Under the pieces are notes generated by a model. The model was not told the DNA's origin. It worked only from the letters and a program-made list of their open reading frames with translations, and made no database searches. Of a stretch of 64,000 nucleotides of DNA, positions 1-16,693 are shown one piece after another; the first letter of the stretch is position 1, and the number at the start of each line of letters is the position of its first letter. This DNA is from Candidatus Omnitrophota bacterium (lineage in GTDB: Bacteria; Omnitrophota; Gorgyraeia; Zapsychrales; Fredricksoniimonadaceae), in NCBI GenBank assembly GCA_903944345.1, contig CAJARJ010000020.1:18110-82109 (forward strand), in the 5' to 3' direction. The translations under genes were made by a program, and so were the position numbers.

Positions 1-813
1 CCCCAGTTCATCCGCCGCCCGCTTCAATTCATCCGGCTTCATCGGACGATAATGCCAGATCGGCACATCTTCCATAAAAGAGATCCCTTTACCTTTCACT
101 GTGTGTGCCACGATCAAGGACGGTTTTCCGGACATTAACGGAAGCCGGGCAAACAACGCACTCAGCGCATCAACATCATGCCCATCAACCTCAGTTACCG
201 CCCAGCCAAAGGCCTTCCATTTCTCTGCCATCGGCTCCATCGGGATGATCTTATCCAAATGATCCATCGCCTGAAGCTTGTTATAATCCACAATGACCGT
301 CAAATTATCAAGCCCAACCGAAGGAGCGAATAAGGCCGTTTCCCAAATACTGCCCTCTTGACACTCCCCATCCCCAATCACTACAAAAACTCTGTATAAT
401 TTTCCATCCTTTTTCCCCGCCAACGCGACTCCGGCACCAAAGGGAAGTCCATGGCCCAATGCCCCAGTCGATGCTTCAATCCCGGGAACCTTATGCATAT
501 CCGGATGCCCGCCAAGGATCGTACCCTTACGTCCGAAAGTATCCAAATGCTCCAACGCAAAAAAACCAAGATCCGCAAGGATCGCATATAACGCCACCCC
601 GCCATGACCCTTGCTTAATATGAACCGATCTCGATCAGGTGCCTTAGGATGTTGCGGATCGACCCTGAGAACTCCATAATAAAGAACCGTCAAAACATCC
701 AGCATGGAGAATGAGGTCGGGAGATGCCCTCCGCCCCCATTGCACATGGTTTTAAAAATACTTTGACGCAACTGACGGGCCTTTGCCCCCAACTGCTCAA
801 TTGATAACAGCAT
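1..813 (-). CDS. transketolase, N-terminal (thiamine-diphosphate-binding) subunit of a split transketolase; 3' end at or just beyond the window edge
   Basis: Minus-strand ORF from ATG at 813 (absent from the ORF track because it is open at position 1). Translation MLLSIEQLGAKARQL...NGGGGHLPTSFS...SKGHGG...IGDGECQEG carries the TPP-binding motifs of transketolase N-terminal subunits. Length ~271 aa equals a full N-terminal subunit. Confidence 0.8.
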   Translation of the reverse strand, partial: MLLSIEQLGAKARQLRQSIFKTMCNGGGGHLPTSFSMLDVLTVLYYGVLRVDPQHPKAPDRDRFILSKGHGGVALYAILADLGFFALEHLDTFGRKGTILGGHPDMHKVPGIEASTGALGHGLPFGAGVALAGKKDGKLYRVFVVIGDGECQEGSIWETALFAPSVGLDNLTVIVDYNKLQAMDHLDKIIPMEPMAEKWKAFGWAVTEVDGHDVDALSALFARLPLMSGKPSLIVAHTVKGKGISFMEDVPIWHYRPMKPDELKRAADELG

Positions 814-2443
814 GTTTACCTCTCTTCATGAACGCATAAAACCGCCTGATAGGAAGAAAAAACCGGAAAACCCCCGGACTGATCACCATCCAACGGATAA
901 TCCATAGAAAACGCATCTGATACTTGAACATCTCAAGATCAAAAAAGCGCGGATCAGATCTATCGATAAAGGTCCTTTGAAAGCAGTGCTTACAAATAAT
1001 AAATCCGCGCCAGGCAGATGCAGAATGACTCAAATCCAGATAACAATTCTCATTCAGTCCACCGCAAAAACTGCAATGGATGTTCAACACATGCCGACCA
1101 TCTGGTCTTTTGCCCAGCACAAACACCTTGGCATAAAGAGCTCTTGTGCGATATACGCTCTCAAAAATGGCCTTCTTGTACATATAATCATATTCATCTT
1201 CAGAAAGCTTCGTCATATTATAGTGCCTGCTGCTCGGCGACATATGATGTGTCCGACGATCATCAAGCTTTCCGGACCTCACAAGATCATGATAAAGAGT
1301 TGTTCCTGGATAAGGATGGATGGGCGCAAATATAATATCAATCTTGGGGAACTTTCTGGCAAACGCGATCGTCTCTCCCAGCGTCTCCAATGTTTCCGCA
1401 GGATCACCAAAAATAAATCCCCCCTGAATACACAGTTTCGCCTTGATGCAGCCGAGTATCCCCCGCTCGATCTGAGCAGGAGATATCCCTTTCTTCATAC
1501 TCTTGAGGACCGTCGGACTGGCGCTCTCAAAGCCCATGCTCAACAAATAACAACCAGAATCTTTCAACATCGCCAGCAAATCATCATCCAGCGAAGGCAC
1601 TCGCGCCTGACAAAGCCATGGCAGTCCCAGAGTTTTTAGTTCCCTGCACGCTTCTTTAGCCCTCTTCTTGTCCGTAATGAACATTTCATCGGCAATATAA
1701 AGGATATTGACCTTATATGTCTCTACTAAATAACGAATCTCCGCCATAAAATTGGCGATCGATCTGACCCTATAATTACCGCCCGTGATACGGAAACAAA
1801 ACGTACACTGGCTTACACAATCCCGGCTAGACACGGGAAATGCCGGTCTTCTGACAAAATCATTCCCTTGAATGGCACACAGCTCCTGTTCAACATGATT
1901 AACATACTGATCAAGAAAAACACCGTACTCAAATCCCTCGTAATCCGGAAAAGGCAATTCATCTAAAACCTCGATCAACGGGGTCGGCGGCGTCTTTACC
2001 ACCCGTCCATTCTCGAGAAAAGCGATTCCTGTAACACGATGAAAATCCCCTCCGCTGCCAAGTGCCTTTAACAGCAGATCTGTCGTAACCTCTCCCTCTC
2101 CAAGAACAAGAACATCAGGTCTTAATTCAGGTAATATGAAATCAGGGTCTGCTGAAGCGATCGCTCCCCCCAAAAAAATACAGGCTTTAGGGGCTAATTC
2201 ACGAACTGTCTGAATGATCGCTATCATCTGGGGCATATGAATAAAAAGCCCTCCGGTCCCTACTGCATCATAATTGCACGCCAAAAGAACATCTTTAAGC
2301 TTGGATTCCGGATAATGATTTAAATTCAACGCATCAACAGAATATCCCTTCTGTTTCAAATACGCCGATATATACATCACCCCCAAAGGAATGTGTTGAT
2401 AATTCTCCCGGCCATAATTAGGGACTATCAGCAATATTTTCAT
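797..2443 (-). CDS. B12-binding radical SAM protein (class B radical SAM methyltransferase-like)
   Basis: 548-aa ORF. N-terminal Rossmann-like cobalamin-binding region (MKILLIVPNY...) followed by a CxxxCxxC cluster (CVSQCTFC) and the radical SAM core. Confidence 0.8.
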   Translation of the reverse strand: MKILLIVPNYGRENYQHIPLGVMYISAYLKQKGYSVDALNLNHYPESKLKDVLLACNYDAVGTGGLFIHMPQMIAIIQTVRELAPKACIFLGGAIASADPDFILPELRPDVLVLGEGEVTTDLLLKALGSGGDFHRVTGIAFLENGRVVKTPPTPLIEVLDELPFPDYEGFEYGVFLDQYVNHVEQELCAIQGNDFVRRPAFPVSSRDCVSQCTFCFRITGGNYRVRSIANFMAEIRYLVETYKVNILYIADEMFITDKKRAKEACRELKTLGLPWLCQARVPSLDDDLLAMLKDSGCYLLSMGFESASPTVLKSMKKGISPAQIERGILGCIKAKLCIQGGFIFGDPAETLETLGETIAFARKFPKIDIIFAPIHPYPGTTLYHDLVRSGKLDDRRTHHMSPSSRHYNMTKLSEDEYDYMYKKAIFESVYRTRALYAKVFVLGKRPDGRHVLNIHCSFCGGLNENCYLDLSHSASAWRGFIICKHCFQRTFIDRSDPRFFDLEMFKYQMRFLWIIRWMVISPGVFRFFLPIRRFYAFMKRGKHAVIN

Positions 2444-2518
2444 ACACTACTGTCTTTCCCTTACTTGAAAGATTCTCAATATCTTCTCCTGTCCTCCGAC
2501 ACAAGCACCCCCAAAACT

Positions 2519-3826
2519 CTATCTATCTACCTCCGATGGGATACAATAAAGAACAGTCTCCCATTTTTCATAAGAATACGTCCTGCAATAAAACCTGTAA
2601 TCCGGACACATGGACATTAAACGAAGTGGCATTTCAAAAAAGTCCCGATTCCTGTGATAAATACTAAATGCTACCTGGGGACGGAACTTCTTGATCAGGA
2701 CATCCATTCCTTCCAGGATCGCATCCTCCCCTCCATCAGTGTCAACCTTAACAAGATCAACCCTTTCAAGGGAAAGAATGCTTACAAGATCCCGCATGCG
2801 GATAGCCCTGAACTTCTTTGCCCCACCATTCCCGAACCCGGAGGAGTCGACCACGGTATCATTCTGCAAGCCATCCCGACACGCCGTATGTACGTCTCCG
2901 ATGCAGGTCAATTCCACTTCTGCTAGCGTTTCCGAAACGGCACGATCGATAAACTCAAGTCTCCCAGGGAAGACCTTTCCCCATTCACGTACATATGGTG
3001 ACAGCTGCTCATCCCCCGTCGGATCGATATTAAATATTTTTTGAACATCAAAAGACAAAAAATATGGAATTTCAAACCCGCGCCCCACACCAAAGTTCAA
3101 AACAACCGAAAGATTATCCAACTTGATATAATCGATATACTGCGGAAGTTCAATAAGACCGCGATAATAATTCTTCCACTGGCTCACAGCATCACCGAAC
3201 ATAACATTATGGTAAAGATCCCTCGAGAGATCATCAGACAACCGCCGGAAAACCTCTGATATCTGTTGCAGATCAGTCTCTCGAAGATCCATGGAATCAT
3301 CAATAAGATAGCTAATGCCCAGCTTGCGTTCCCGGCTTAAATGATAACCGGTTTTTTCGAGAGCTGGAATAAACCGCAATATCCCGTTCTTGCCAGAACG
3401 ACGAATCCGCCAATGGCTAGCGATGAACCTTGAAGCATCTTTAGTCACCCGCCCATGTACCTGAATATACTTACCCCACATCTGTTCATCAAACTGACCA
3501 TAACGCTCTTGAAGCTGATTTTCAACCAGACGAAAAATGGTATCATGCGTTCCCCAGTAATCCTCCGTGTTATAAACATGCAGGATCTTTCGTCCAGTCT
3601 TAACATTCAGGATATCCGGCTTCGTCGACAGAAGAACGCTGTCTGCCATCAAATCAGAGATGCTCTGCCGATACCCCCTGAATCTAGTTTCGGGATACAA
3701 GTACGAAAGAATCCTTATCAGCTTCTGATTCTCTTCCAGCGGATGCAACGGATCATCATAAATATAATATTCACGAAGCTCTTTAAGATCAGAAAGTTTT
3801 CTTGAAATCATAACATCCCTTATCAC
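2519..3826 (-). CDS. FkbM-family SAM-dependent methyltransferase with a long N-terminal domain of unknown function
   Basis: 435-aa ORF. C-terminal region (...GFGNGG...VDLVKVDTDGGEDAILEGMDVLIKKFRPQV...) matches the FkbM methyltransferase signature. Confidence 0.55.
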   Translation of the reverse strand: MIRDVMISRKLSDLKELREYYIYDDPLHPLEENQKLIRILSYLYPETRFRGYRQSISDLMADSVLLSTKPDILNVKTGRKILHVYNTEDYWGTHDTIFRLVENQLQERYGQFDEQMWGKYIQVHGRVTKDASRFIASHWRIRRSGKNGILRFIPALEKTGYHLSRERKLGISYLIDDSMDLRETDLQQISEVFRRLSDDLSRDLYHNVMFGDAVSQWKNYYRGLIELPQYIDYIKLDNLSVVLNFGVGRGFEIPYFLSFDVQKIFNIDPTGDEQLSPYVREWGKVFPGRLEFIDRAVSETLAEVELTCIGDVHTACRDGLQNDTVVDSSGFGNGGAKKFRAIRMRDLVSILSLERVDLVKVDTDGGEDAILEGMDVLIKKFRPQVAFSIYHRNRDFFEMPLRLMSMCPDYRFYCRTYSYEKWETVLYCIPSEVDR

Positions 3827-3859
3827 TAACGACCACGCCTCTTTTCAACGCACCATTAA

Positions 3860-4927
3860 TCAGATAAAATTCACATGTGCCGGCGGACGTTTAATCTCCC
3901 ACAAATAACGGTTCACCTCATCCATCCGGCAGTTCAATCGGCAGTGCGACGCATCGAAATCCTGCTCGACCCACCGCAGGGAATCCTTGCGCTTTGGCCC
4001 AGTCCAGATCTCTTCAAAGGTATTCTGATAAATATTGCCGTAAGCAAAACGCTCATCGCCCAGATAAACACTGCAGCCCCACACATTCCCGCCGGCATCG
4101 ATATACGACCAGAACGGAAGCGCTATGCAGCGGTTATAAGGCTTGTGCCCTTCATCCCATTTCTTCATGGTGTTCAGACGAAAAATGACCTGAAAGTCTG
4201 ATGCATTCTCTTTCATCAGTTCGTCCTGAAGATACAAATAATCACTGTATTTCACCTGGCTATAAACATTCGTCTGACTTTGGGGATGCTGGGAATACGG
4301 CTTGATCACCAGATAATCCAGTCCAAGGTTCCGGGCCAATCGTGCCAGCGCCACGGCCTCATGATGATTGTCAGGCAAAAGCAGAAGCTGCATGCCGATT
4401 GTGCAGGAATATTTGTTCTCCCGTCGGATCCTCACCGCTTCCTTCAGATTCTCCATCAGACGGGGAAAGTCATTCTCGGTCGTGCGATGAATCTTGGCAT
4501 ACGTGGATGCCGTTGCCCCGTTGATACTGATCTTAATCCATTCCGTAACGCCCAGAATCTTTTCCGAGATTTCCTTCTTCATCAGAACACCATTGGTCGT
4601 GAAAGCCGTATCGATCCCGCTCTTTTTAGTATGCTGCGTAATCTCCACCATATCTTTGTGCAGAAAGGGCTCGCCCTCGCCGGCAAACATCATGCTCCGC
4701 AACCCCAGTCGCCCCAACTCCGACAGTCTTTCTTTCAAAAGCCCTGTTTCCAGAAACCGCCGCTGGTATTCCATGAAATCAAGTGCACAATACACGCACC
4801 GGTGATTACATGCTCCCGCTGGACTTATCTCCATATAAAGCGGATACATCGTCTTCCCCGCCTTCCATTCCGCCAGGCGATCCACATGGTACATCAACTT
4901 GTGGCTGTCGATTTTGTACTTGTCCAT
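3860..4927 (-). CDS. radical SAM protein (possibly SPASM/twitch type)
   Basis: 355-aa ORF with CNHRCVYC (CxxxCxxC) near the N-terminus and additional Cys-rich C-terminal region. Confidence 0.7.
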   Translation of the reverse strand: MDKYKIDSHKLMYHVDRLAEWKAGKTMYPLYMEISPAGACNHRCVYCALDFMEYQRRFLETGLLKERLSELGRLGLRSMMFAGEGEPFLHKDMVEITQHTKKSGIDTAFTTNGVLMKKEISEKILGVTEWIKISINGATASTYAKIHRTTENDFPRLMENLKEAVRIRRENKYSCTIGMQLLLLPDNHHEAVALARLARNLGLDYLVIKPYSQHPQSQTNVYSQVKYSDYLYLQDELMKENASDFQVIFRLNTMKKWDEGHKPYNRCIALPFWSYIDAGGNVWGCSVYLGDERFAYGNIYQNTFEEIWTGPKRKDSLRWVEQDFDASHCRLNCRMDEVNRYLWEIKRPPAHVNFI

Positions 4928-4935
4928 AACACCTT

Positions 4936-5874
4936 TCAGGAAAGAAGCCTGGTAATATCCTTTAATACCGCCTCAGGCTTGGCCAGTGTGGTGCAGCCAT
5001 CCTTGAAATGAGGACAAATGTTCTCCCGACACGGAAAAAGCTCACAGGAAAAATCCTTGGGATAGAAAGCCACCCCACGTTCATACAAATAGTTTTCCTG
5101 ACAATGCGTTGGTCCGAAAATCACCACAAACGGCTTCTTGAGCGCGATCGCAATATGCATGCCAAAAGAATCGTTGGTCACAAGCAAGCGACATGAATTG
5201 ATCCATTCAAAATAAGCTTCCATATCATTCTGGCCTTGTTGCCAAGATACGGAAAATTTCTTCCCAATCTGCTTCTCGAGTTTTTTCCAATACAACATGG
5301 GCCAGCCCTTTAGCGGCCACTTGTTACCAACAAGATAGTTAAAACCGATATCGAACTTTTCCTTGCCCTTTAGCTGATGCCCGAAAACATATTCCTCACC
5401 CTTCCAATGGGCTCCCACCATGTCAAAAAGGCCTTCCTGCCAATACGCCTTACGGTGACGTTTGCGTTCCAGATCACGACACACATCCAGCACCGCATGT
5501 GTTCCGTCATAGGCTGCCGCCTGACCAGATCGACGATCAAACCGAAAACCATACCGGCGCCAGGCGCTAATAGAATCCGCCAAAGCGCATAATCCCGGAA
5601 CCTTTTCCAGATTGATGACCGTGTCGAACTCCTCCGCCTGCAACTGCAAGACCGAGCTTAAGTCATACCCGAGAATACGATTGATATACGGATTGCCCTT
5701 CAAAATCGGGAAAGCCTTCTCATCGACCAGCCAGGTCACATGAGAATCCTTGTATAGATTAAGAAGAACGGTCGTACGCAACACATCCCCATAGCTCGTG
5801 AAATTGCTAATATCCGCATCCAGAGTCTCGGAATACCCCACCTTGATAATCAAGACCTTATGTTTCTTTTCCAT
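4936..5874 (-). CDS. glycosyltransferase family 9 (heptosyltransferase-like)
   Basis: Start moved to the in-frame ATG at 5874 (MEKKHKVLIIKVGYSETLDAD...), which removes overlap with the upstream gene. C-terminal LVTNDSFGMHIAIALKKPFVVIFGPT is the GT9 signature. Confidence 0.75.
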   Translation of the reverse strand: MEKKHKVLIIKVGYSETLDADISNFTSYGDVLRTTVLLNLYKDSHVTWLVDEKAFPILKGNPYINRILGYDLSSVLQLQAEEFDTVINLEKVPGLCALADSISAWRRYGFRFDRRSGQAAAYDGTHAVLDVCRDLERKRHRKAYWQEGLFDMVGAHWKGEEYVFGHQLKGKEKFDIGFNYLVGNKWPLKGWPMLYWKKLEKQIGKKFSVSWQQGQNDMEAYFEWINSCRLLVTNDSFGMHIAIALKKPFVVIFGPTHCQENYLYERGVAFYPKDFSCELFPCRENICPHFKDGCTTLAKPEAVLKDITRLLS

Positions 5875-6763: not shown

Positions 6764-6901
6764 GATCGAGCCTATCCTGTCCCGTGTGTCCTTATCATCA
6801 AAAAATACTTTACCAGGCCTCAAAATACAAAAACGGCAGTTCCAGCCGCGACCAGACACTTCAGAGGCCGTTTGGCAGAATCTTTGTTATCCTGTTAATC
6901 T

Positions 6902-7465: not shown

Positions 7466-7507
7466 AGATAAAACCTGTTGAAAGTGTTGAAACTTCTAAA
7501 AAAGACC

Positions 7508-9134: not shown

Positions 9135-9299
9135 AAATCCTTAATAAGTCTCAACAGGAAGACGTCAGGGCCCCCTTCTTGCCACGCGGAAAGCAATACA
9201 TATTGAATTAAATTATAACGAAGAAAGTTAAGAACTGATATTATAATCTCATGTAATGTGGCTCTCTCAGACAATTCCGATACCAAAACCTGAAATCCT

Positions 9300-11480
9300 A
9301 TGCCTGCATTAAAAGCCCTTTACCATTATTTGAGTAGCCCGCCCATCAAAACCTGGCCCTGGCTGGGAGTCCTGTTTCTAGCCTGGATTTTTATGTACCG
9401 CGGCTTTCTGGACGGCACCTTCTTTGCCTCGATGGAAACAACCCCCCAGTATTTCTACGCTCTCTATTTTACCGACTGCCTTTCCCAAGGCATCTTTCCT
9501 CTATGGGATCCTTACCACAACTGGGGAGTCGCCGACAATATCGACCCTCTCTGGGTGGGACTCTATAACCCGTTTTATCTCTTAATCCTGCTTTTACGTC
9601 TGGCCGGAGTCTCTGCCGAAACCTCCTATGCCTTCTTCATGCACTTCTATGTTCTTGCAAGCATCCTTGGTTTTTATCTTCTGTGCCGCCAGCTCATGAA
9701 AGACACCACCTCGGCTCTTCTGGCCGCAGCCGCATTGCTGTTCTCTTCTTTGAGCATCATTCCTTTTTTGACCATCTGGCCGCAACTGATCTTTACCCCC
9801 ATAGTCTGGTTTCTGTACTTTCTTGTTATCTTTTGCAAAGCGGCGAACAATAACGGACGTCGAATGGCTGCAATCGGAATAACCTTCTGCTCCATGATCA
9901 TTGTTTCAACCTATATCCCTCTTTTTGCCCTCACATTTTTTTGTTGTCTACTGCTTGGTTTTCTGCTCTGTGCACCGCGCCAGACTTTTTCTTTTCTTGG
10001 AACGATACTCTCTTTTGTCCGCCAGAACGCTCTTGTGTGCGTCTTTCTGCTGGGCAGTTTCCTGCTGGCCTGCGTGCCGATTGTCCGCTGGTATCTGTCT
10101 TCAAAAGATCCGGGTTTTCTTATGGATATTGCCCGGGGAGGCACCTCCGATGGGCCGTCGGGCATTTCCCTGATCGGGCTTAACCTCAACACCATCTGGG
10201 GGGAAGGCTCCTGGATGGAGCTTTTCAGCGATCAGGAAATAGGCGCCCAACTCTATACCCAGGTTTCATTTACAATCTTCTTTTTTCTTTCGCTGGCACT
10301 GCCCGTGGCTGTTCCGGCTTTATGGCGCGCACTGTTTGTCGCGGCCTTCCTTCTTCTGCTGTTTCTTTCGGCCAATGTTTTCCCGCTTCATCGCTGGGCT
10401 TATGAACACATCTTTTTCGTCCGCTTCTTTCGTAATTATTTCTACCTGGCTCCCTGTCTTTTGGGATCGTTGATCATCCTTGCACTGCTCCCGCTGAAAT
10501 CTTTTCTTTTAACTCAAGGCGCCCGGCGCCCGCTACGCCTTATGTGGGTCACCCTCCTCCTTGTTGTCTGGATCATTTTTCTTAAGCAATTTTCCAATGT
10601 CCACCCTATGACTTACTGGACAGCAGGCATCCTCCTGCCAACCTTGTCCCTTATCCTTCTTGACATCCTGCCATTCAACAGCCGGGCCGCCCGATTTCTA
10701 CTGTTGAGCGTGCTGATCGCCCAGCCGGCTGCCGTGTTCTTTCCCGATTTCTTTAACAATTTCTACTCACGCCAACCCCTGAAAGAATTTGTCGGACACA
10801 ACAACCAAATGAGCTACACCCGCCCCGACAGAGATAATGATCCTTACCGCCGCGCCGCCCATGTCACTGAAAAAATGGCCCGGGACGATTCCGGATTCTC
10901 CGAACAAGGTTACATGGGCAGTGCCTATGCCCACGCTCTGCTGACACATATCCCTTACCCCGTTCTTCAGTCTTATGTCAAAAACAAGTTTGTCCTTTAC
11001 GATCGCGTGGAATATTCCGATCCGGACAAACCCGACTGGCAAAAGCTTGCGCACTCACTAACAGGAGAATCCTCAATAGCAATCGCTGGCTCGGCACAAG
11101 GGGCAGGCGGCAACCGGCAACCTGGCGCTCGAGCAGAAATCCTCTCGCAAAATTCCCCCGGATTCGAGGTAACCGCATTCGATGTCAATAAGATCATCGT
11201 GCAAACAGACTTCTCCGCAGACAAATTCCTGGTCTATAACGACAACTACCACCCCGGCTGGCGGGCCTATATTGATGGAAAGAAATTCCCGCTTTACCGT
11301 GCAAACCTGGCGTTTAAAGGCATCTGGATTCCCGGCGGGAAACATACCCTGAAACTCGTTTACGGAGCCTGGTGGGAACCGGCGCTAAACTGGAGCCTGA
11401 TAGGATTATTTCTATTGTTTATGTTATTAACCGCAAGAAATACTGTTTTGATTGAAAGCAAAAATGAAGAAGCTTGCTAA
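9300..11480 (+). CDS. YfhO-like polytopic membrane protein (putative GT-C-type glycosyltransferase)
   Basis: 726-aa ORF. N-terminal ~500 aa has many predicted TM segments and a large C-terminal soluble domain. Resemblance to the YfhO family is by architecture and N-terminal sequence character only. Confidence 0.4.
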   Translation: MPALKALYHYLSSPPIKTWPWLGVLFLAWIFMYRGFLDGTFFASMETTPQYFYALYFTDCLSQGIFPLWDPYHNWGVADNIDPLWVGLYNPFYLLILLLRLAGVSAETSYAFFMHFYVLASILGFYLLCRQLMKDTTSALLAAAALLFSSLSIIPFLTIWPQLIFTPIVWFLYFLVIFCKAANNNGRRMAAIGITFCSMIIVSTYIPLFALTFFCCLLLGFLLCAPRQTFSFLGTILSFVRQNALVCVFLLGSFLLACVPIVRWYLSSKDPGFLMDIARGGTSDGPSGISLIGLNLNTIWGEGSWMELFSDQEIGAQLYTQVSFTIFFFLSLALPVAVPALWRALFVAAFLLLLFLSANVFPLHRWAYEHIFFVRFFRNYFYLAPCLLGSLIILALLPLKSFLLTQGARRPLRLMWVTLLLVVWIIFLKQFSNVHPMTYWTAGILLPTLSLILLDILPFNSRAARFLLLSVLIAQPAAVFFPDFFNNFYSRQPLKEFVGHNNQMSYTRPDRDNDPYRRAAHVTEKMARDDSGFSEQGYMGSAYAHALLTHIPYPVLQSYVKNKFVLYDRVEYSDPDKPDWQKLAHSLTGESSIAIAGSAQGAGGNRQPGARAEILSQNSPGFEVTAFDVNKIIVQTDFSADKFLVYNDNYHPGWRAYIDGKKFPLYRANLAFKGIWIPGGKHTLKLVYGAWWEPALNWSLIGLFLLFMLLTARNTVLIESKNEEAC

Positions 11481-12231
11481 ATACATTTCAGGCTCTGCAG
11501 GTTTTATGCTTCTGTGTGCAGGAATCATCATCTGGCTGACCGGCGACTTCAAAAAAGCCTATATCCGCAGAGCTGACGTGACTACCGCTTGGAGCGAAAA
11601 CTTCATTACCGGGCTGCAATCCGGCTCGGAGATATCCCCCAGAACGCTGAAGCTGGCAGCCTTGTACTATAAAAATCTCTCTGCGGCTCTGCCGTCACTC
11701 CCGGGGCCGTATGAAGCCATTGCTTATTGTTACGCGAAGCTGGGTATGAACCAGGCTGCGGAACGCTATCTGGAACAGGGCCGACAAGCCTGCCCGGATT
11801 GTTTCTGGTTTTCTTATAATTCAGCGGTTCTTGCTCTGCGCAACAAAAACAAGCGGGCCGCCGAGGAGCATCTGTCCAGGGCCTTAACAGTTTCCGGAGA
11901 ACGCCTGCTCAAAAGCGTGATCCGCGCCCCTCTGTCCCGATTACCACAAGAGCAACGACAACTCCTCTACCAGCAAGCCATCCTTTTTGCCCGACAGGTG
12001 CGCGGCGAAGCAATGACTGTCCTGATTGGTCTGCGGCTGGAGCGGAAAGATCCGACAGGCGCACGTACCCTTGCCGAACAGGCGATGGCCGACCCGATGG
12101 TTGATAACAAAACCTTCTTCTTGCGCGTCCTTATTGATCAATCCTCTGCCTCGGTGCAGGACAAACAGCCGGATATTGTGATCCATCCCTGGGCAAAAAC
12201 AATACCGGTCGGCAAAGAAAACCATTTCTAG
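11464..12231 (+). CDS. membrane-anchored TPR-like repeat protein
   Basis: N-terminal TM helix (FMLLCAGIIIWL) then helical repeat region (AIAYCYAKLGMNQAAERYLEQG...). Start is uncertain (11452 or 11464) and overlaps the 3' end of the upstream gene. Confidence 0.35.
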   Translation: MKKLAKYISGSAGFMLLCAGIIIWLTGDFKKAYIRRADVTTAWSENFITGLQSGSEISPRTLKLAALYYKNLSAALPSLPGPYEAIAYCYAKLGMNQAAERYLEQGRQACPDCFWFSYNSAVLALRNKNKRAAEEHLSRALTVSGERLLKSVIRAPLSRLPQEQRQLLYQQAILFARQVRGEAMTVLIGLRLERKDPTGARTLAEQAMADPMVDNKTFFLRVLIDQSSASVQDKQPDIVIHPWAKTIPVGKENHF

Positions 12232-12242
12232 GTCTGATGCCT

Positions 12243-13136
12243 TCAACCCTTTTGTTTGCGTACCAGAACCCAAAGCACGTTCCGTGGCAATAGCCAATCC
12301 AGCGGCAGAGACACAGCAGCAATGGCTCCTTTGGGAGCAAACGGACGATACAGCCATTGCGGAGTTTTCCTGATCCTCAAGTGACGATACAGGCTCGGGA
12401 TAACCAGCGGGATCGTGTCAAAACCCGAGTCGACAACCGTCAGTCCAAGCTGGCGGCAGAAAGTTTCGACCGATTTCATATCGAAATGCCACAAATGCCT
12501 GGGAGGATCAAGAAAGAAGTTGCAGGCCCCAAAGAGTTTACTCGCCGAAGATGAAATGTCCGGCAGAACTATATAAAAGCTGTTGGCCCCGTGATCGATC
12601 ATTCTGTTTACAAAGACTTCCGGCTCCCTGATATGCTCCAGAACATGCCGTAACACAACCAGTCCGTCTTTCATCCCGGGAAAACCTTCCAGAGAGTAAT
12701 TATTGTAATCAATAGAATAATACGGGATATCCGCGGTTTCCAGTAAACAGGGCTTCTGCCCACAGGAGTCTGCGGCGGAAACCCTGGCTCCGGAGGCGCG
12801 AATAATCCTGGCGAAATCTCCTGTGCCACAGCCGATATCCAGAAACTCGCCGGGTGAAAAACTCCTCCGGATACGGGCCAATTCCCGGCGCAGAAGAAAA
12901 TTCTTCAGAAACAGGTGCAGATCCGAGGTGGCCTGACGCATCATTCCGCCCATTTCATTCTGATAATACTGCGCCAGATCTTCCGGAAACGGCGCGGTTT
13001 TCTTGACCCCGCAGGAATCGCATTCCAACAGGCTAAAAGGTGTTGCGGTCACCAGATCACACGTCTGCAGAAACACCCGGCTAAACCGGCCCTGACGGCA
13101 GATTGGACAAATGCTGTTATCTGTTGCATCGGCCAT
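12243..13136 (-). CDS. class I SAM-dependent methyltransferase with N-terminal zinc-ribbon
   Basis: CPIC...CDSC zinc-ribbon at the N-terminus and an LDIGCGTGDF SAM-binding motif I. Confidence 0.75.
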   Translation of the reverse strand: MADATDNSICPICRQGRFSRVFLQTCDLVTATPFSLLECDSCGVKKTAPFPEDLAQYYQNEMGGMMRQATSDLHLFLKNFLLRRELARIRRSFSPGEFLDIGCGTGDFARIIRASGARVSAADSCGQKPCLLETADIPYYSIDYNNYSLEGFPGMKDGLVVLRHVLEHIREPEVFVNRMIDHGANSFYIVLPDISSSASKLFGACNFFLDPPRHLWHFDMKSVETFCRQLGLTVVDSGFDTIPLVIPSLYRHLRIRKTPQWLYRPFAPKGAIAAVSLPLDWLLPRNVLWVLVRKQKG

Positions 13137-13163
13137 GACTCATACTCCTTGTGCATATCCCTG

Positions 13164-14039
13164 TTATTTATAAAACACCCAGAAAGAAAACCCGATCCAG
13201 CAAAGCACACTTGTTATCAAAGGAAAATCCGCAAGCAGAATTTCGTCAACATCTTCGGTCTTGCCGACAACGTGAACCAGATACAGATATCGAAACACTC
13301 CATAAACAACAAAAACCAGCGAATAAATCATCCAGTAACCATGCACCCTGGCGACTATGTCCGGAGATATTGTGTACAGCCCGTAAAAAACAATAGCCAG
13401 TGTCGCCGAAATCATGATCAGTTGATCGAGAAAATATATCGTGTAGTGCCGTAAAGCGCCCCGGTGCTCCTCTGCTCTGTCTCCCAGCGTTCTCATCTCC
13501 GATCTTCTTTTGGTGAAACCAAGAAAAAGTGACAGCAGAAAGACACAAAGCTGCAGCCACCCCGAGGGGAGAACCCCAACGACTACCGCGCCTGCCCATA
13601 TCCGTATACAAAAACCAAGCGCGATACAGCCCACATCCAGCAATACCAGTTTCTTCCAAAAGAAAGTGTACATAAAATGCAGTAACAGATACAACCCTGC
13701 CAGACAGAAAAACAGGCCACCAAGAAACAGCGAAAGCAGCAATCCGCCGCACACAAGAACAACCCCTAGCAAAACAGCAATGCGTCGGCTGATCCTGCCG
13801 CTGGCAATAGGCCGTTGACATTTCTTCGGATGGGCCCGGTCCCTGTGCATGTCTTCCAGATCATTGACAACATACACCCCGCTGGAGACAAGGCAGAACG
13901 CAACCAAAGCCAGCAAAGCGGACGAAAAAGATGACAGGCTTACAAAGCGGCCGGAAAAAAGAAGCGGCGCCAGAACAAAAAGGTTCTTGATCCACTGTTT
14001 GGTGCGCATTAGCCTGAAAACATCCATCAAAAAACTCAT
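13164..14039 (-). CDS. UbiA-family prenyltransferase, decaprenyl-phosphate phosphoribosyltransferase (DPPRS)-like
   Basis: Start placed at ATG 14039 (MSFLMDVFRLMRTKQWIKNLFVLAPLLFSG...), which gives an ATGA overlap with the upstream gene stop. NDLEDMHRDRAHP is the Asp-rich motif of the DPPRS/UbiA family. Multiple TM segments. Confidence 0.7.
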   Translation of the reverse strand: MSFLMDVFRLMRTKQWIKNLFVLAPLLFSGRFVSLSSFSSALLALVAFCLVSSGVYVVNDLEDMHRDRAHPKKCQRPIASGRISRRIAVLLGVVLVCGGLLLSLFLGGLFFCLAGLYLLLHFMYTFFWKKLVLLDVGCIALGFCIRIWAGAVVVGVLPSGWLQLCVFLLSLFLGFTKRRSEMRTLGDRAEEHRGALRHYTIYFLDQLIMISATLAIVFYGLYTISPDIVARVHGYWMIYSLVFVVYGVFRYLYLVHVVGKTEDVDEILLADFPLITSVLCWIGFSFWVFYK

Positions 14040-15052
14040 TCGTCCCCCTTTTTTGCTCCGGCAGGAACATTTTGAACATAGGACAATATCTCTTTCACTG
14101 CCTGTAGTAAGCGCACGGTAAGTTCCGGCGATCTCAGGCAGGGATACGTCCCATGACATTGCGGAACAGCATAACCAAAGAAAGTACAAGGTGAGCAAAG
14201 AAGACCGGAATCCACAAAAAATGTCCTGGTGTTTTCCGGAGCCCATTTATTCCTGTTCCCTGGACCAAAGACAGCCACAGAAGGAACCGACAATGCCGCA
14301 GCGATATGTAGCAGCCCCGAATCCTGACCGATAAAACAACGAGCCCCGGCGACCAGGGCCACACTTTGGGCCAGGCTGGTCTTGCCGACAAAACTGACCA
14401 CGCCAGGACTCTTCATCTCATCTAATAGCTTCCCCGCGAATACCTTCATGTCCCCGCCTCCGAGCAAGACGACATTCAGTCCACTGTCAATAATCAGTCG
14501 CCCCATCAATACGAGCTGTTCCGAGGAAAAACGCCTAGCCGCGGAACTTCCTCCCAATGCCAGCGCCGCGTACGGCCGGGACAAAGATGCTTTTGCCCAG
14601 GCAATGTCGGGGGCAGAGACAGCATATGATCCTTCCAGATGCAATCTCCCCCGTAACCCCAAAAGGGAAAAAAGCCGGCTAAAATTATGCAGCTCATAAG
14701 CTTCGTGAGAATATTCAACGGCTGTATAAAAAAGACCCGCCCGTTCAGGACGAGTGCCAAAGCCGATCGTCCTGCGGGAGCGAATCAGGCGACTTAAAAC
14801 AGCACTCAGACAGTGCCATTGCTCGGTATCAACAACCCAGTCATATGAATTCCGGCCAACCGCCGTTAACTCACCTAAAACATCGTAACAAAAAATCTGA
14901 CCGCAAAGTCCGGGCTGCGAACGAAATACAGCCACGTTCCTCTTTTCGCACAAAATGTCAAGTGTGTGTCCCCCACGCTTTAACTCGCGCAGGACTGGCA
15001 ACAGCAAAACCGCATCCCCAATACCGCCAGGCCGAATAATCAGAACTTTCAT
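14036..15052 (-). CDS. glycosyltransferase family 9 (heptosyltransferase-like)
   Basis: Start at ATG 15052 (MKVLIIRPGGIGDAVLLLPVLREL...), the typical GT9 N-terminus. C-terminal ...CFIGQDSGLLHIAAALSVPSVAVFGPG matches the GT9 signature. The ORF could extend to 15208. Confidence 0.65.
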   Translation of the reverse strand: MKVLIIRPGGIGDAVLLLPVLRELKRGGHTLDILCEKRNVAVFRSQPGLCGQIFCYDVLGELTAVGRNSYDWVVDTEQWHCLSAVLSRLIRSRRTIGFGTRPERAGLFYTAVEYSHEAYELHNFSRLFSLLGLRGRLHLEGSYAVSAPDIAWAKASLSRPYAALALGGSSAARRFSSEQLVLMGRLIIDSGLNVVLLGGGDMKVFAGKLLDEMKSPGVVSFVGKTSLAQSVALVAGARCFIGQDSGLLHIAAALSVPSVAVFGPGNRNKWAPENTRTFFVDSGLLCSPCTFFGYAVPQCHGTYPCLRSPELTVRLLQAVKEILSYVQNVPAGAKKGDE

Positions 15053-15217
15053 CGGGCCCGAGGGAAGAACGGAAGAATCCGTCCGACTCCTCCCTAAACA
15101 ACGACAAACAATGGATCCCAGGGTGTGATCAAGCAGCTTGATCCCTTTAAGCGGCCAGCTCCCCTGCGAACGAAAAATATCCCACAGAGTAATCGGCCTC
15201 ATAAACAAGAAACCATC

Positions 15218-16693
15218 TTAATCTCCCAGAAGAACACGGGGCAGTTTATGCGTGAGCAGTCCGCGAACATGGTCAAGGGTTGGCTGGCCAAACTTGCGCA
15301 GAATCATATCCTGATAACGGGAAGAACCAAAATACTGCATAAAAGCATTGTCCCGAAAACGCAGAATCTCGGCGGAAGAAAGATATTTGCTGGGCAGCGG
15401 AACCGTATGCCGGTTAAATTGAGAATAACCCTCCCAGCAGGAGGGCAAAGGCAAAGCGTCGCGCACTGCCGTATCATACAAAGCCGCCCCTGGATAAGCC
15501 ATGGTCACATAAAAATTGGCATATTCGCAGTTAAGTTCAACAGCCAGATCCAGAGTCTCCTGCATGGTCGACATATCATCGTCCGGCAGACCAAACATGT
15601 AATTACCAATCACATGAATGCCCGCCTCGTTGGTTTGACGAATGACCTGAAGAATCTTTTCCCGGTCGAATCTTCCCTTGGCAACCCCTTTACGTACTTC
15701 CGTGTTGGCCCCCTCAATGCCATAGGCAATCCAGCGCACGCCCGCGCGAAAAAGTTTACGGAGAATATTTTCATTAACGGTATCAATACGCGCATACACC
15801 CAGATATTAATATCGTATTTGCGCTCGGCCAGACCCAGGCAAACCTCGTCCATCCGGCGGGGATTGACCACAAAAAGCTCGTCAACAAACTTGAAATTTC
15901 TGACCCCGTATTTCCTAACCAGAAGATCAATCTCCTCGAGAACCTTGCCGGCAGAACGAAAACGAATTCCCCCCCCGCCGTAAAGTGCATGAATATTGCA
16001 GTAACTGCAGTTGTAGGGACATCCCAGGCTTGTGTAAACCATGGCATAGGAAGCCCGATCCTCAAGATGCCCGAAACAATGCCAGTTATGCGCGCGGTAA
16101 CGATCCATCGGCAAAAGATCCCAGGCCGCCAGAGGCAGAACATCCAGATCCTGAAGCTGCCGGGCCCAGCCCCGGTCAACAACCTTATCATTCTGCTTAT
16201 ACCAGAGCCCCTGAATGTTACCCGTATCCCCGCCATTCCTGAAGGCCATGACGAGGTCGGTAATACACAAAAATGTTTCACCCCGGCAAAGAAAATCTAC
16301 CGGCTCTTCCCGTAGGGTGCGTTCGGGAACACCGGAAGGATGAATCCCGAAAATAACCGAACGGACATTAGTGGACTGTTGGCGCAGTTCTTCAAGGACA
16401 GCGCGCACCGCCGGCATTTTGGGTGTCGAGGAAACACTTGGGTTGCCGCCTATGGCCCCCACGGCACACAAAAGCGGTTGAAGTTCCACCGCCCGGCGCA
16501 CAGCTTCCCGCGGCCCGAGTTGTTGGGCATCCGCATCAATAATCGCAACCGTAAGCCCGCGCTCGCGCAAATAGGCAGCCAGCAAAGCCAGCCATAAAGG
16601 TGTCTCAACGGCGGCATACTCATTGGCCAAAGCCCCGTAGATCGGCTCCTTGCCGCCGGGATTGACAAGAACAACATCCAGCGGAGATCCCAT
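15218..16693 (-). CDS. B12-binding radical SAM protein
   Basis: 491-aa ORF. N-terminal cobalamin-binding-like domain, radical SAM cluster CPYNCSYC. Confidence 0.8.
   Translation of the reverse strand: MGSPLDVVLVNPGGKEPIYGALANEYAAVETPLWLALLAAYLRERGLTVAIIDADAQQLGPREAVRRAVELQPLLCAVGAIGGNPSVSSTPKMPAVRAVLEELRQQSTNVRSVIFGIHPSGVPERTLREEPVDFLCRGETFLCITDLVMAFRNGGDTGNIQGLWYKQNDKVVDRGWARQLQDLDVLPLAAWDLLPMDRYRAHNWHCFGHLEDRASYAMVYTSLGCPYNCSYCNIHALYGGGGIRFRSAGKVLEEIDLLVRKYGVRNFKFVDELFVVNPRRMDEVCLGLAERKYDINIWVYARIDTVNENILRKLFRAGVRWIAYGIEGANTEVRKGVAKGRFDREKILQVIRQTNEAGIHVIGNYMFGLPDDDMSTMQETLDLAVELNCEYANFYVTMAYPGAALYDTAVRDALPLPSCWEGYSQFNRHTVPLPSKYLSSAEILRFRDNAFMQYFGSSRYQDMILRKFGQPTLDHVRGLLTHKLPRVLLGD

Follow-up and report, generated by a model that had tools for sequence, protein, structure and literature searches.

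A three-component system of extracytoplasmic pentofuranose glycosylation, a type first described in 2024, is known from Citrobacter youngae O1/O2, where it consists of ORF15 (PPPRS-PRP), ORF14 (a MATE flippase) and ORF12 (a GT136 GT-C enzyme) (Kelly et al., PNAS 2024, PMC11127046). GT-C enzymes also consume the lipid-linked donor of the mycobacterial decaprenyl-phospho-arabinose pathway (Rv3806c, Rv3807c, DprE1/DprE2, Emb/Aft), and in the pilin D-arabinofuranosylation of Pseudomonas aeruginosa Pa5196/PA7 (PsPA7_6245-6249 plus TfpW) a DPPRS-type enzyme feeds a TPR-associated GT-C. The CsbB/GtcA/YfhO (GtlA/GtlB) systems glycosylate teichoic acids in Gram-positive hosts, Bacillus and Listeria, with a donor made from a UDP-sugar by a GT2 enzyme (PMC8035078, PMC7389260).

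Here we compare with these systems a locus in a window of 64 kb (the whole stretch of DNA analysed) from a different host, an uncultured Omnitrophota bacterium. The initial annotation had read positions 1-16693 as one pathway decorating an envelope glycan. All ORFs that it listed are present at or near their original coordinates, and Pfam and NCBIfam confirmed the domain calls for five radical SAM enzymes (three of them B12-binding), three methyltransferases, two GT9 enzymes, UbiA, a membrane protein of 726 aa and a split-transketolase N-subunit. The span nevertheless holds two adjoining units, a conserved unit 1 (9300-17559) and a variable glycan locus, unit 2, which runs from beyond the left edge to ~9134. 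We think it probable that unit 1 is a variant of the three-component pentofuranose system and unit 2 a separate strain-specific glycan locus, this being the best explanation of the whole. The conserved gene set most likely serves to link ribose to a lipid and then put it on a surface molecule outside the cytoplasm. The features are:

1..813, minus strand: N-subunit of a split transketolase, truncated at the window edge (Pfam Transketolase_N, 141 bits)
797..2443, minus strand: B12-binding radical SAM enzyme 'A', 548 aa (Pfam B12-binding and Radical_SAM; CxxxCxxC motif)
2519..3826, minus strand: protein of 430-435 aa with a C-terminal FkbM-type methyltransferase domain (Pfam Methyltransf_21, a weak 27.7 bits, residues 352-399)
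3860..4927, minus strand: radical SAM/SPASM enzyme, 355 aa (Pfam Radical_SAM 65.6 bits, SPASM 31.8 bits)
4936..5874, minus strand: small GT9-like glycosyltransferase, divergent, 312 aa (Pfam GT9 40.5 bits, confined to residues 229-273)
5858..6763, minus strand: radical SAM enzyme, 301 aa, not assignable to a known subfamily (Pfam Radical_SAM 40 bits; CFLKCPYC motif)
6902..7465, minus strand: MarR-type EPS-associated regulator heading the variable locus (TIGR04176 MarR_EPS 48.6 bits, under the cut-off of 88)
7689..9125, minus strand: B12-binding radical SAM enzyme 'B', TIGR04190/Ta0216-like (TIGR04190 186 bits, under the cut-off of 500; CxxxCxxC motif)
9300..11480, plus strand: predicted divergent YfhO-family GT-C glycosyltransferase, 726 aa, ~13 TM helices, C-terminal beta-sandwich and final TM helix (AF2, Foldseek, hhalign)
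11464..12231, plus strand: membrane-anchored TPR protein (Pfam TPR_14; one N-terminal hydrophobic segment)
12243..13136, minus strand: Methyltransf_23 SAM-dependent methyltransferase, 297 aa (Pfam 56 bits; N-terminal Cys4 zinc-ribbon-like motif)
13164..14039, minus strand: predicted polyprenyl-phosphate 5-phosphoribosyltransferase (PPPRS/DPPRS-type UbiA), 291 aa (NCBIfam cut-offs, PDB match, AF2 model)
14036..15202, minus strand: GT9-family glycosyltransferase, 388 aa (Pfam GT9 95 bits)
15218..16693, minus strand: B12-binding radical SAM enzyme 'C', 491 aa (Pfam B12-binding and Radical_SAM; CPYNCSYC motif)
16693..17559, minus strand: methylenetetrahydrofolate reductase MetF, whose gene opens the operon (Pfam MTHFR 294 bits)
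48533..50434, minus strand: DUF2079 membrane protein, outside the span of the finding (Pfam DUF2079 179 bits)

The span is not one pathway, because synteny with a relative described as 85%-identical (L005/L006) holds only from 9350 rightwards. L005 is collinear with the window from 9350 to past 24041 at 82.6% identity, and left of 9350 the sole common segment is 7113-7592 (the 5' half of marR and its upstream region, 86% identity). Unrelated AAA_14/DUF4143, DUF1016, SIS, epimerase and methyltransferase genes take the place of the left part in that relative, and B12 enzyme 'B' has no counterpart in L005/L006. Moreover, GC content is 0.40-0.48 across 1-10 kb (0.40-0.43 at 'B') versus 0.50-0.54 across 10-22 kb, with a step at ~9-10 kb. 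The outer bounds of 1-16693 had also to be moved, since metF overlaps the unit on the right and the variable locus extends ~12 kb past the left edge on the source contig.

In unit 1 the minus-strand operon runs metF, B12 enzyme 'C', GT9, UbiA, methyltransferase, and the plus-strand pair of GT-C and TPR genes converges with its 3' end, leaving 11 bp between. UbiA reached 250.1 bits with the curated decaprenyl-phosphate phosphoribosyltransferase model NF008977 (cut-off 234) and 214.7 bits with NF008978 (cut-off 207) versus 20-36 bits with MenA/UbiA/ChlG-type models, which rules out a quinone or chlorophyll prenyltransferase. Its top PDB sequence match is 8j8j, Rv3806c (full-length, E 7e-29, 28% identity; next UbiA-family enzyme E 4e-6), and the AF2 model (pLDDT 84) is closest to the same structure (TM 0.80). 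The motif VNDLEDMHRD conforms to N-D-x-x-D-x-x-x-D; its N59, D60, D63 and D67 show no variation, and neither do R12, K18, Y56, K73, R76, Y124, K129 and F143, all at positions of Rv3806c PRPP/Mg ligands. Ten of the 11 PRPP/Mg ligands of M. tuberculosis Rv3806c are kept, and the PRPP-specific ones are missing from other UbiA enzymes (PMC10994848). Residues R22, K28, Y70, N73, D77, K87, R90, Y138 and K143 of Rv3806c are retained, Phe stands at the Y157 position and, unlike in Rv3806c, His replaces Q135. These data support the DPPRS-type assignment predicted by the initial annotation. Proteobacterial relatives have DprE1, DprE2, HAD and LPG_synthase_TM genes as neighbours, and therefore the UbiA family works inside pentofuranose systems.

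The 726-aa protein has about 13-14 hydrophobic segments. Pfam YfhO covers only residues 621-688 (29.8 bits, cut-off 28.5), and hhalign against bona fide YfhO proteins spans columns 33-720 (prob 99.9, E 6e-37). The high-probability Foldseek matches of its AF2 model (pTM 0.80) are all GT-C enzymes (AglB, EmbA/B/C, ArnT, AftD, AftA, PglB), at weak E-values of 3e-3 and TM 0.26-0.45. It has the G-x-FPLWDP motif in common with YfhO, and D70 is present in 34 of 39 sequences. Sequence and model thus support a predicted full-length divergent GT-C enzyme of the YfhO lineage, and the earlier proposal of a YfhO-like GT-C candidate at this position holds. The idea of a lipid-linked pentose, for which UbiA subfamily and GT-C fold had been set beforehand as tests, survives both.

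The GT9 and UbiA genes share an ATGA overlap, read directly from the sequence, so the translational coupling proposed earlier stands. In a UbiA clade of 11 members, GT9 orthologues (278-355 bits) lie no more than two genes from UbiA in 6 related loci and DUF2079 flanks it in 8, which speaks for a functional link; the 6 related GT9-UbiA loci have no radical SAM gene near by. L011 has a HAD hydrolase gene upstream of a compact array in which the UbiA, GT9, Methyltransf_23, YfhO-like (830 aa) and DUF2079 genes all point the same way; flippase-type genes occur in L013 (MurJ/MatE-type) and L010 (Wzx-like). Methyltransf_23 orthologues (250-254 bits) adjoin UbiA/GT9 in L011 and L015, and FkbM or TylF methyltransferases take this position in other relatives. 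UbiA was not found within 10 kb of more distant YfhO-like homologues (25-28% identity), so that this lineage and L011 are the basis of the GT-C/UbiA pairing. The DUF2079 protein at 48.5 kb, from a family of the Pfam GT-C clan, may also use the UbiA product; its score with the DUF2079 gene that lies directly upstream of UbiA in L014 is 203 bits. Because the GT-C gene beside UbiA in most relatives is DUF2079 and not YfhO-like, the cognate transferase is ambiguous.

The place of B12 enzyme 'C' in the operon may be incidental. It belongs to a large family (>6500 homologues) normally found in a nucleotide-sugar cassette, apparently uncharacterised: among 49 metagenome loci, each 7 kb or longer, the neighbours are DegT/RfbH-like (46), HddA-like kinase (37) and epimerase (34) genes and 32 beta subunits of a split ThDP enzyme, and neither UbiA nor MTHFR is present in any of them. 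This context favours a role of the family in sugar tailoring. The metF gene overlaps its start by one base (TAATG), an adjacency seen only in this lineage.

We infer the acceptor, the sugar and the roles of GT9, methyltransferase and B12 enzyme. UbiA, to judge from enzyme class and donor-site residues, would move ribofuranose-5-phosphate from PRPP onto polyprenyl phosphate at the cytoplasmic face; the carrier is presumably undecaprenyl and not decaprenyl phosphate, since the envelope, in contrast to mycobacteria, is Gram-negative. The product would be dephosphorylated and flipped by proteins encoded elsewhere, and the YfhO-like GT-C, possibly together with the DUF2079 protein, would attach the pentofuranose, on the periplasmic side, to an acceptor of the envelope. 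GT9, which scores below every heptosyltransferase equivalog cut-off, probably acts in making or lengthening the acceptor or an intermediate linked to lipid. The arabinose-donor route suggested initially is not borne out: the 64 kb yielded no DprE1/DprE2 homologue, which makes ribofuranose the most likely sugar, perhaps O-methylated by the co-conserved methyltransferase. As in C. youngae, where the scheme without a DprE-type epimerase likewise predicts ribofuranose, an N-D-x-x-D-x-x-x-D UbiA phosphoribosyltransferase lies near a polytopic GT-C with a C-terminal beta-rich periplasmic domain, and the module sits beside a glycan assembly locus. The earlier remark that the combination is not a textbook pathway is out of date for the core, since a polyprenyl-phosphoribose synthase with a GT-C is a published three-component system (PMC11127046). 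Unlike in C. youngae, UbiA has no fused HAD phosphatase domain, and neither a phosphoribose 5-phosphatase (HAD or PAP2) nor a flippase (MATE/MOP/GtrA/SMR-type) was found in the 64 kb, so that two defining parts of the published system are missing in cis. The GT-C enzyme is assigned to the YfhO lineage, with the DUF2079 protein as a further candidate, where C. youngae has GT136; the mycobacterial GT-C enzymes are of other families. The lack of phosphatase, flippase and epimerase in cis and the coupling to GT9 and the methyltransferase set the core apart from the system of Kelly et al.

Unit 2 is a replaceable, lower-GC, O-antigen/EPS-type glycan assembly locus headed by the MarR_EPS regulator; the top promoter-like site in the 18 kb scanned is at 7555-7528. 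The transketolase was correctly called as split, its N-subunit in the window and its C-subunit beyond it on the source contig, followed there by an SDR, a Zn-ADH, a fourth B12 radical SAM enzyme, a TIGR04372 glycosyltransferase, a PglK/MsbA-like ABC exporter and a CDP-glucose synthase. Gene 'A' overlaps the N-subunit gene, and the radical SAM gene 5858..6763, whose product matches curated families at its N-terminus only, runs into the start of the small GT9 gene, whose product is 27% identical to the larger GT9 across 88 residues. The SPASM enzyme reached no curated equivalog cut-off. There are indeed three B12-binding radical SAM genes; their products share 23-25% identity and are therefore superfamily relatives and not recent paralogues, where the initial annotation had spoken of paralogues. 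All fall far under every curated equivalog cut-off, and the top partial matches include non-methylases (HpnJ, BchE, AprD4; for 'A', HpnJ with 171 bits against a cut-off of 578), so the supposed C-methylation is not established. With its radical SAM enzymes, split ThDP enzyme and reductases, the locus most likely makes a strain-specific polymer with a modified (branched, alkylated or deoxy) sugar; it holds unusually many radical enzymes.

A quite improbable alternative is that all 16.7 kb, including five radical SAM enzymes, the transketolase, the methyltransferases and both GT9 enzymes, tailor the sugar delivered by the UbiA/GT-C pair. The genes are contiguous, mostly on one strand and with several overlapping pairs, and GT9, UbiA and several B12 radical SAM genes occur together in two distant loci (L036, L047). 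The exchange of the left part in a relative that retains 9350-24041, the GC step and the radical-SAM-free GT9-UbiA loci argue against it. Partial matches of the B12 enzymes to HpnJ, HpnR, a 'ladderane' B12 protein and RiPP C-methyltransferases, the frequency of lipid prenyltransferases among UbiA enzymes and the SPASM enzyme, a typical peptide maturase feature, would fit action of UbiA and the radical SAM enzymes on membrane lipids or a small natural product instead of a glycan, such as methylation of a prenylated or ether lipid by the B12 enzymes, or a RiPP-type cluster on the left. This is very improbable, because those matches lie far under curated cut-offs, UbiA keeps the PRPP-specific ligands, the window part of the left locus has no intergenic gap of precursor-peptide size, and the neighbours are glycosyltransferases, GT-C, MarR_EPS regulator, CDP-glucose synthase and PglK-like exporter, and the 'C' family itself has a nucleotide-sugar cassette around it in 46 of 49 loci.

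The LPS core, named initially as acceptor, is only one option and stands level with a protein, for example a pilin or an adhesin. TfpW, a P. aeruginosa GT-C with a C-terminal TPR domain, arabinosylates pilin from a DPPRS-derived donor (bioRxiv 10.1101/2020.04.19.049825), and by analogy the YfhO-like GT-C and its TPR partner could recognise a protein and add the UbiA-derived pentofuranose. The start of the TPR gene overlaps the end of the GT-C gene, and the pairing recurs in L090, L091 and, with a DUF6798 gene between, L092, where it ends a type IV pilus/T2SS operon (T2SS-E, F, G, PilMNO, TPR, DUF6798, YfhO-like). Pilin-like, T2SS-E, T2SS-F and secretin genes lie at 27-35 kb of the window, and a giant secreted protein gene is directly upstream of the operon. 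Nevertheless we regard TfpW-like protein O-pentofuranosylation as rather unlikely. TfpW has its TPR domain fused and its gene follows pilA, whereas the TPR protein here is separate and the GT-C gene has no pilin gene beside it in the window; DprE1/E2 and GtrA-like genes, which the P. aeruginosa system has, are absent, the pilus link appears in one of three distant contexts only, and the GT9 neighbour suggests LPS-type chemistry. Known YfhO acceptors are teichoic acids (PMC8035078), and the 726-aa protein is a homologue of YfhO along its entire length, with the FPLWDP loop motif and the C-terminal architecture in common; unlike in those systems, the neighbourhood lacks both a membrane-anchored GT2 gene and a GtcA gene, and the adjoining donor synthase is the PRPP-dependent UbiA. 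A type IV pilin-like protein (27179-28102) and the adjacent 1980-aa surface protein would be the candidate protein acceptors.

All genes named by the initial annotation were recovered when open reading frames were listed, translated and scanned against Pfam and NCBIfam, and the span reads as follows.

1-813, minus, transketolase N-subunit, truncated by the window edge
797-2443, minus, B12-binding radical SAM enzyme 'A'
2519-3826, minus, FkbM-type methyltransferase
3860-4927, minus, radical SAM/SPASM enzyme
4936-5874, minus, small divergent GT9 (GT9 40.5 bits, partial)
5858-6763, minus, radical SAM enzyme outside known subfamilies
6902-7465, minus, MarR_EPS-type regulator
7689-9125, minus, B12-binding radical SAM enzyme 'B'
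9300-11480, plus, 726-aa polytopic protein
11464-12231, plus, membrane-anchored TPR protein, its gene overlapping that of the 726-aa protein
12243-13136, minus, Methyltransf_23 protein, last gene of the metF operon
13164-14039, minus, UbiA, metF operon
14036-15202, minus, large GT9 (GT9 95.1 bits), metF operon
15218-16693, minus, B12-binding radical SAM enzyme 'C', metF operon
16693-17559, minus, metF, in a tightly packed operon of metF, B12 'C', GT9, UbiA and Methyltransf_23

The ATGA overlap of the GT9 and UbiA genes can be read straight from the sequence, as can a TAATG overlap at 16691-16695 that joins the metF stop codon to the start codon of B12 'C' and so brings a folate enzyme into the same operon as a B12 radical SAM enzyme, a GT9, UbiA and a methyltransferase. 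Promoter and terminator scans gave no signal above shuffled expectation, and an Rfam search returned one tRNA only and zero riboswitches. Directly upstream of this operon lies the gene of a 1980-aa secreted protein (17598-23540, minus strand), which is kept in a relative whose UbiA is 85% identical. The protein combines a papain-like C1 peptidase domain with a PKD domain and six or more InlB-B-repeat/Ig-like modules.

The whole 16.7 kb had been read as a single pathway, and this did not hold when the window was compared with that relative (loci L005 and L006; L numbers denote fetched relative loci), because collinearity stops at 9350 and a GC step from 0.40-0.48 to 0.50-0.54 falls at about 9-10 kb. 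From 9350 to beyond 24041 the two DNAs are collinear at 82.6% identity, and the gene order in the relative is that of the window: GAPDH, the giant protein, metF, B12 'C', GT9, UbiA, Methyltransf_23, TPR protein and the YfhO-like 726-aa protein. Past this last gene the relative differs and carries AAA_14/DUF4143 and DUF1016 proteins, an HTH regulator, a SIS protein, epimerases and methyltransferases. Left of 9350 only 7113-7592 is common to both, that is, the 5′ half of marR and its upstream region, and the top-scoring promoter-like site lies within the latter. We refer to the conserved core (9300-17559) as unit 1 and to the variable glycan locus, from beyond the left edge to about 9134, as unit 2. 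On the source contig unit 2 continues with the transketolase C-subunit, an SDR, a Zn-dependent alcohol dehydrogenase, a fourth B12 radical SAM enzyme, a TIGR04372 glycosyltransferase, a PglK/MsbA-like ABC exporter and a glucose-1-phosphate cytidylyltransferase. This layout is what one expects of an O-antigen/EPS-type locus that can be replaced while a conserved regulator stays as its anchor. We rejected a RiPP or natural-product cluster for unit 2 because of its gene content and because the part inside the window leaves no space for a precursor gene. A CDP-alditol (arabinitol-type) function was also weighed for the split transketolase; the nucleotidyltransferase beside it is RfbF-like (glucose-1-phosphate cytidylyltransferase) and not TarI/AbpA-like. 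At the junction, AAA_14/DUF4143 and DUF1016/YhcG genes (L005 14948-17369) take the place of B12 'B' (window 7689-9134), and L006 shows, in addition, a duplicated HTH regulator and a fragment of DUF1016, which suggests that the DNA has been rearranged more than once where the conserved and variable units meet.

Within unit 1, the 291-aa UbiA protein is of the DPPRS type, as had been proposed from its motif, and not a quinone or chlorophyll prenyltransferase. It passes the curated cut-offs of two NCBIfam models for decaprenyl-phosphate phosphoribosyltransferase, with 250.1 bits for NF008977 (cut-off 234) and 214.7 bits for NF008978 (cut-off 207), and the quinone, haem and chlorophyll prenyltransferase models give it only 20-36 bits. 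Its closest solved structure is that of Mycobacterium tuberculosis Rv3806c, matched over the full length with an E-value of 7e-29, and the next UbiA-family structure follows at 4e-6. An AlphaFold (AF2) model (pLDDT 84) has the nine-helix UbiA fold and retrieves 8j8j as the top Foldseek match (E 6.8e-12, TM 0.80), ahead of an A. fulgidus UbiA homologue (TM 0.72) and DGGGP synthase (TM 0.64). The N-D-x-x-D-x-x-x-D motif lies in cytoplasmic loop 1 and binds Mg2+ and PRPP. It reads VNDLEDMHRD here, and its residues N59, D60, D63 and D67, which do not vary across 38 homologues, correspond to N73, D74, D77 and D81 of Rv3806c. The equivalent residues of ORF15 of Citrobacter youngae are N247, D248, D251 and D255 (PMC11127046). 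The phosphoribose site of Rv3806c, which is not common to other UbiA enzymes, is formed by R22, K28, Y70, N73, D77, K87, R90, Q135, Y138, K143 and Y157 as PRPP/Mg ligands (PMC10994848). By alignment these become R12, K18, Y56, N59, D63, K73, R76, H121, Y124, K129 and F143 in the present UbiA, all invariant among the 38 homologues except H121. The change of Q135 to His is the sole ligand change from Rv3806c, since Phe at the Y157 position is found in mycobacteria too (PMC10994848). Thus PRPP is well supported as the probable donor, because curated cut-offs are passed, Rv3806c is the best match and the PRPP/Mg ligands are kept, and we infer from the sequence that the enzyme would transfer ribose-5-phosphate from PRPP to polyprenyl phosphate.

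The 726-aa protein had been put forward as a GT-C candidate, and both structure and profile comparison bear this out. The Pfam YfhO model (PF09586) passes marginally (29.8 bits, threshold 28.5) and covers residues 621-688 only. For the AlphaFold model (pTM 0.80) all Foldseek matches with a probability of at least 0.9 are GT-C enzymes (AglB, EmbA/B/C, ArnT, AftD, AftA, PglB, PMT, ALG9 and DPY19), with weak E-values of 3e-3 and above. When a profile of the close family was aligned with one of bona fide YfhO proteins by hhalign, the probability was 99.94 and the E-value 6e-37 over 638 columns (33-720), which amounts to full-length homology. A loop motif, G-x-FPLWDP, is common to both families, and its aspartate, D70, lies in the first extracytoplasmic loop. 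Of 39 sequences, 34 have Asp and 4 have Asn at this position, which is where GT-C enzymes usually carry their catalytic acid. Hence the idea of a lipid-linked pentose survives, because UbiA is of DPPRS type and the 726-aa protein is a GT-C. A word-index protein search with about 16 full-length matches had made the YfhO-like family seem rare, and this was overturned by an exhaustive profile search that gave 506 cluster representatives with E-values of 1e-30 or lower. Distant homologues have no UbiA gene within 10 kb; therefore the YfhO-like GT-C family is not generally tied to pentofuranose donors.

A published framework for such a pair is now available. Kelly et al. (PNAS 2024, PMC11127046) showed that periplasmic addition of alpha-pentofuranose side chains uses three components, namely a polyprenyl-phosphoribose synthase (UbiA domain plus HAD phosphatase), a MATE flippase and a GT-C of family GT136, and that optional epimerases set the sugar, ORF13-type enzymes giving xylofuranose and DprE1/E2 arabinofuranose; according to the authors such systems are widespread, including in organisms with unknown glycans. 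Compared with this scheme, unit 1 has the synthase and a GT-C, the YfhO-like gene being 1.7 kb from UbiA here and in the same operon in L011, and it adds a GT9 and a methyltransferase, whereas phosphatase and flippase are missing in cis from the 64-kb window. UbiA has no extra domain, no HAD or PAP2 protein was among the Pfam results for the window, and phmmer found zero window homologues of the HAD proteins of L011, L068, L079 and L086. Likewise, the window holds no homologue of the MurJ/MatE protein of L013 or the Wzx-like protein of L010, and its only small multi-TM ORF (40798-41091) is at the TraL position of a conjugation-like cluster. In contrast to the mycobacterial DPA (arabinofuranose) pathway, the epimerase pair DprE1 (FAD oxidase) and DprE2 (SDR) is absent from the window: a phmmer search of the 64 kb (E up to 1e-3) gave no homologue of the DprE1/DprE2-like proteins of L041, L042, L068, L072 and L079. 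The pathway of the initial annotation is kept in part: the lipid-linked pentose stands, while the single pathway and the arabinose and C-methylation details are not supported in the form proposed. The window also differs from the Gram-positive CsbB/GtcA/YfhO precedent (PMC8035078), as neither a CsbB/GtrB-type GT2 donor synthase nor a GtcA flippase gene was found near the YfhO-like gene.

To place UbiA among its relatives, 80 GTDB loci were fetched, adjacent genes were clustered and a neighbour-joining tree was built. An exact-peptide scan of GTDB genomes with UbiA alone had recovered zero relatives, and these came from an alignment-based scan. The identical protein is also present on metagenome contigs, and the nearest named homologues of UbiA, the 726-aa protein and B12 'C' are from Candidatus Omnitrophota MAGs. 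In the tree the window UbiA falls in an 11-member clade with L008 and L010-L017 (Omnitrophota and similarly labelled MAGs). Within this clade a GT9 orthologue (278-355 bits) is at most two genes from UbiA in six loci, a gene for a DUF2079 membrane protein flanks UbiA in eight, and a methyltransferase (Methyltransf_23, FkbM or TylF) is recurrent; DUF2079 is a member of the Pfam GT-C clan. L013 and L010 contribute the MurJ/MatE-type and Wzx-like flippase candidates. L011 is the most telling locus, with UbiA, GT9, Methyltransf_23, an 830-aa YfhO-like protein and DUF2079 in succession on a single strand and a HAD hydrolase gene upstream. Proteobacterial relatives (Chromohalobacter, Pseudomonas and others) form a clade of their own, in which DprE1-like, DprE2-like, HAD and LPG_synthase_TM proteins make up the classical arabinofuranose set. 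When the window was searched for homologues of DprE1/DprE2, HAD, MOP/MATE, DUF362, LPG_synthase_TM and DUF2079, the sole match was a DUF2079 gene at 48533-50434, next to rmlBDCA and a methyltransferase-GT2 fusion. Because this GT2 (46842-48536), the only one in the window, has zero TM segments, UbiA is the only evident lipid-phospho-sugar synthase for either GT-C, YfhO-like or DUF2079. The DUF2079 gene belongs to a second glycan module (42450-50434, minus strand) with rmlB, rmlD, rmlC, rmlA, an epimerase and the Methyltransf_23-GT2 fusion, and in other Omnitrophota it is the immediate neighbour of UbiA.

As to the acceptor, LPS or another glycan is favoured by the GT9 neighbour and the adjoining polysaccharide locus. 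The large GT9 scores below the equivalog cut-offs of heptosyltransferases I, II and III (WaaC, WaaF and WaaQ) with 80.1 (185.3), 65 (170.2) and 62.5 (134.6) bits, and the small GT9 reaches 40 bits against 134.6. Transfer of the pentofuranose to protein is a live alternative: the GT-C and its overlapping TPR partner are again paired in L090 and L091, and in L092 with a DUF6798 gene between, where the GT-C homologue closes a type IV pilus/T2SS operon, a layout that hints at pilin or pseudopilin glycosylation. A precedent for a protein-directed GT-C/TPR enzyme is Pseudomonas aeruginosa TfpW, a GT-C with a TPR domain that arabinosylates pilin (bioRxiv 10.1101/2020.04.19.049825), and in the window itself pilin-like and T2SS genes and the 1980-aa surface protein are nearby. 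The order in L092 (1-12139) is T2SS-E, F, G, PilM/N/O, TPR protein, DUF6798 and YfhO-like gene.

The module predicts that ribofuranose, possibly methylated, would be added outside the cytoplasm from a polyprenyl-phospho-ribose donor. For the 2024 three-component scheme this would mean a new phylum, new GT-C families (YfhO-like and DUF2079), and GT9 and methyltransferase as a new partner set. The Omnitrophota are bacteria that have not been cultured; they are often very small and may depend on a host. What makes the finding of interest is the phylum, the uncommon set of partners and, next to it, a radical SAM/ThDP sugar chemistry that is unexplored.

The three B12 enzymes each have an N-terminal B12-binding domain and a CxxxCxxC radical SAM core (CVSQCTFC, CLVNCSFC or CPYNCSYC), and are only 23-25% identical in pairs. 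They had been taken as likely C-methylating, an assignment that the matches do not establish: no radical SAM enzyme of the span reached a curated family cut-off, and the best partial matches, all far below cut-offs, were HpnJ, BchE, TIGR04190, AprD4 and MoaA-like cores, of which HpnJ, BchE and TIGR04190 are non-methylases or of unknown function. The best PDB match for B12 'C' is the dehydratase AprD4. The B12 'C' family is large and keeps at least 50% identity across phyla, and its contexts were collected from 49 metagenome loci, each at least 7 kb long. A DegT/RfbH-like PLP enzyme gene was present in 46 of the 49, an HddA-like GHMP kinase in 37, an NAD-dependent epimerase/dehydratase in 34, the beta subunit of a ThDP enzyme in 32 (partners: 28 E1-alpha-type, 7 transketolase-N-type) and an HddC/ManC-like nucleotidyltransferase in 21; UbiA and MTHFR were found in none and GT9 in one. 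The same gene set occurs in two genome contexts, one with a Wzm/Wzt exporter. Its members in L096, L097 and L103-L177 are epimerase/dehydratase, HddC/ManC-like, HddA-like, split ThDP enzyme (E1 alpha/beta or transketolase N/C), B12 radical SAM and DegT/RfbH-like genes. Therefore, given this gene content, the family appears to tailor a nucleotide sugar together with the split ThDP enzyme, and the overlap of B12 'A' with the transketolase gene in the window mirrors the pairing. No published description of the cassette was found in the literature searched.

The DegT and HddA partners were not found in the window, and a 66%-identical Omnitrophota homologue of B12 'C' lies in an unrelated context; therefore the position of B12 'C' in the operon is lineage-specific, and its role with metF, GT9 and UbiA is uncertain. 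We rejected the possibility that metF beside B12 'C' denotes methyl-THF-dependent chemistry, as MTHFR is near none of the 49 loci, so this adjacency is lineage-specific as well. Around UbiA, a B12 radical SAM gene lies within 10 kb in only about 6 of the 80 loci, which could be within chance, given how many such genes these anaerobes have; the clusters in L036 and L047 nevertheless appear genuine. These two distant loci (L036, a Planctomycetota MAG, 474-13936; L047, a Nitrospinia MAG, 497-9459) combine a DPPRS-type UbiA with GT9, DUF362 and B12 radical SAM genes. In L036 as many as five ORFs resemble B12 radical SAM enzymes, two of them full-length and directly after UbiA, and L047 has one confirmed gene. 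DUF362 directly follows UbiA in 17 of the 80 GTDB loci, with an exosortase gene close by in several of these.

Unit 2 and the B12 'C' cassette point to radical SAM/ThDP chemistry on nucleotide sugars. No characterised enzyme of such kind was found in the literature searched; if true, this chemistry would matter for glycan diversity and enzyme discovery. A broader reading, which we consider rather unlikely as a whole, has two separate parts. In the first, the module would glycosylate proteins, and possibly polymerise the pentofuranose: one PRPP-dependent UbiA would feed two unrelated GT-C enzymes, the YfhO-like protein with its TPR partner and DUF2079, to place methylated ribofuranose on pilins or giant adhesins. 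In the second, the pairs of B12 radical SAM and split ThDP enzymes, found in the window and in the cassette conserved in 46 of 49 metagenome loci, may stand for a widespread uncharacterised route in anaerobes to carbon-extended or C-alkylated nucleotide sugars.

Further along the window (26255-41091, minus strand), F-type conjugation-like genes are interleaved with type IV pilus/T2SS genes in an unusual hybrid layout. The conjugation-like group comprises TraU, a TraC/TraG P-loop protein, TrbI/TraB and TraE, and a three-TM ORF of 98 aa takes the TraL position. The pilus group consists of T2SS-F, a T2SS-E ATPase, a secretin and a pilin-like protein of the N-methyl type that also carries a phage tail-collar domain.
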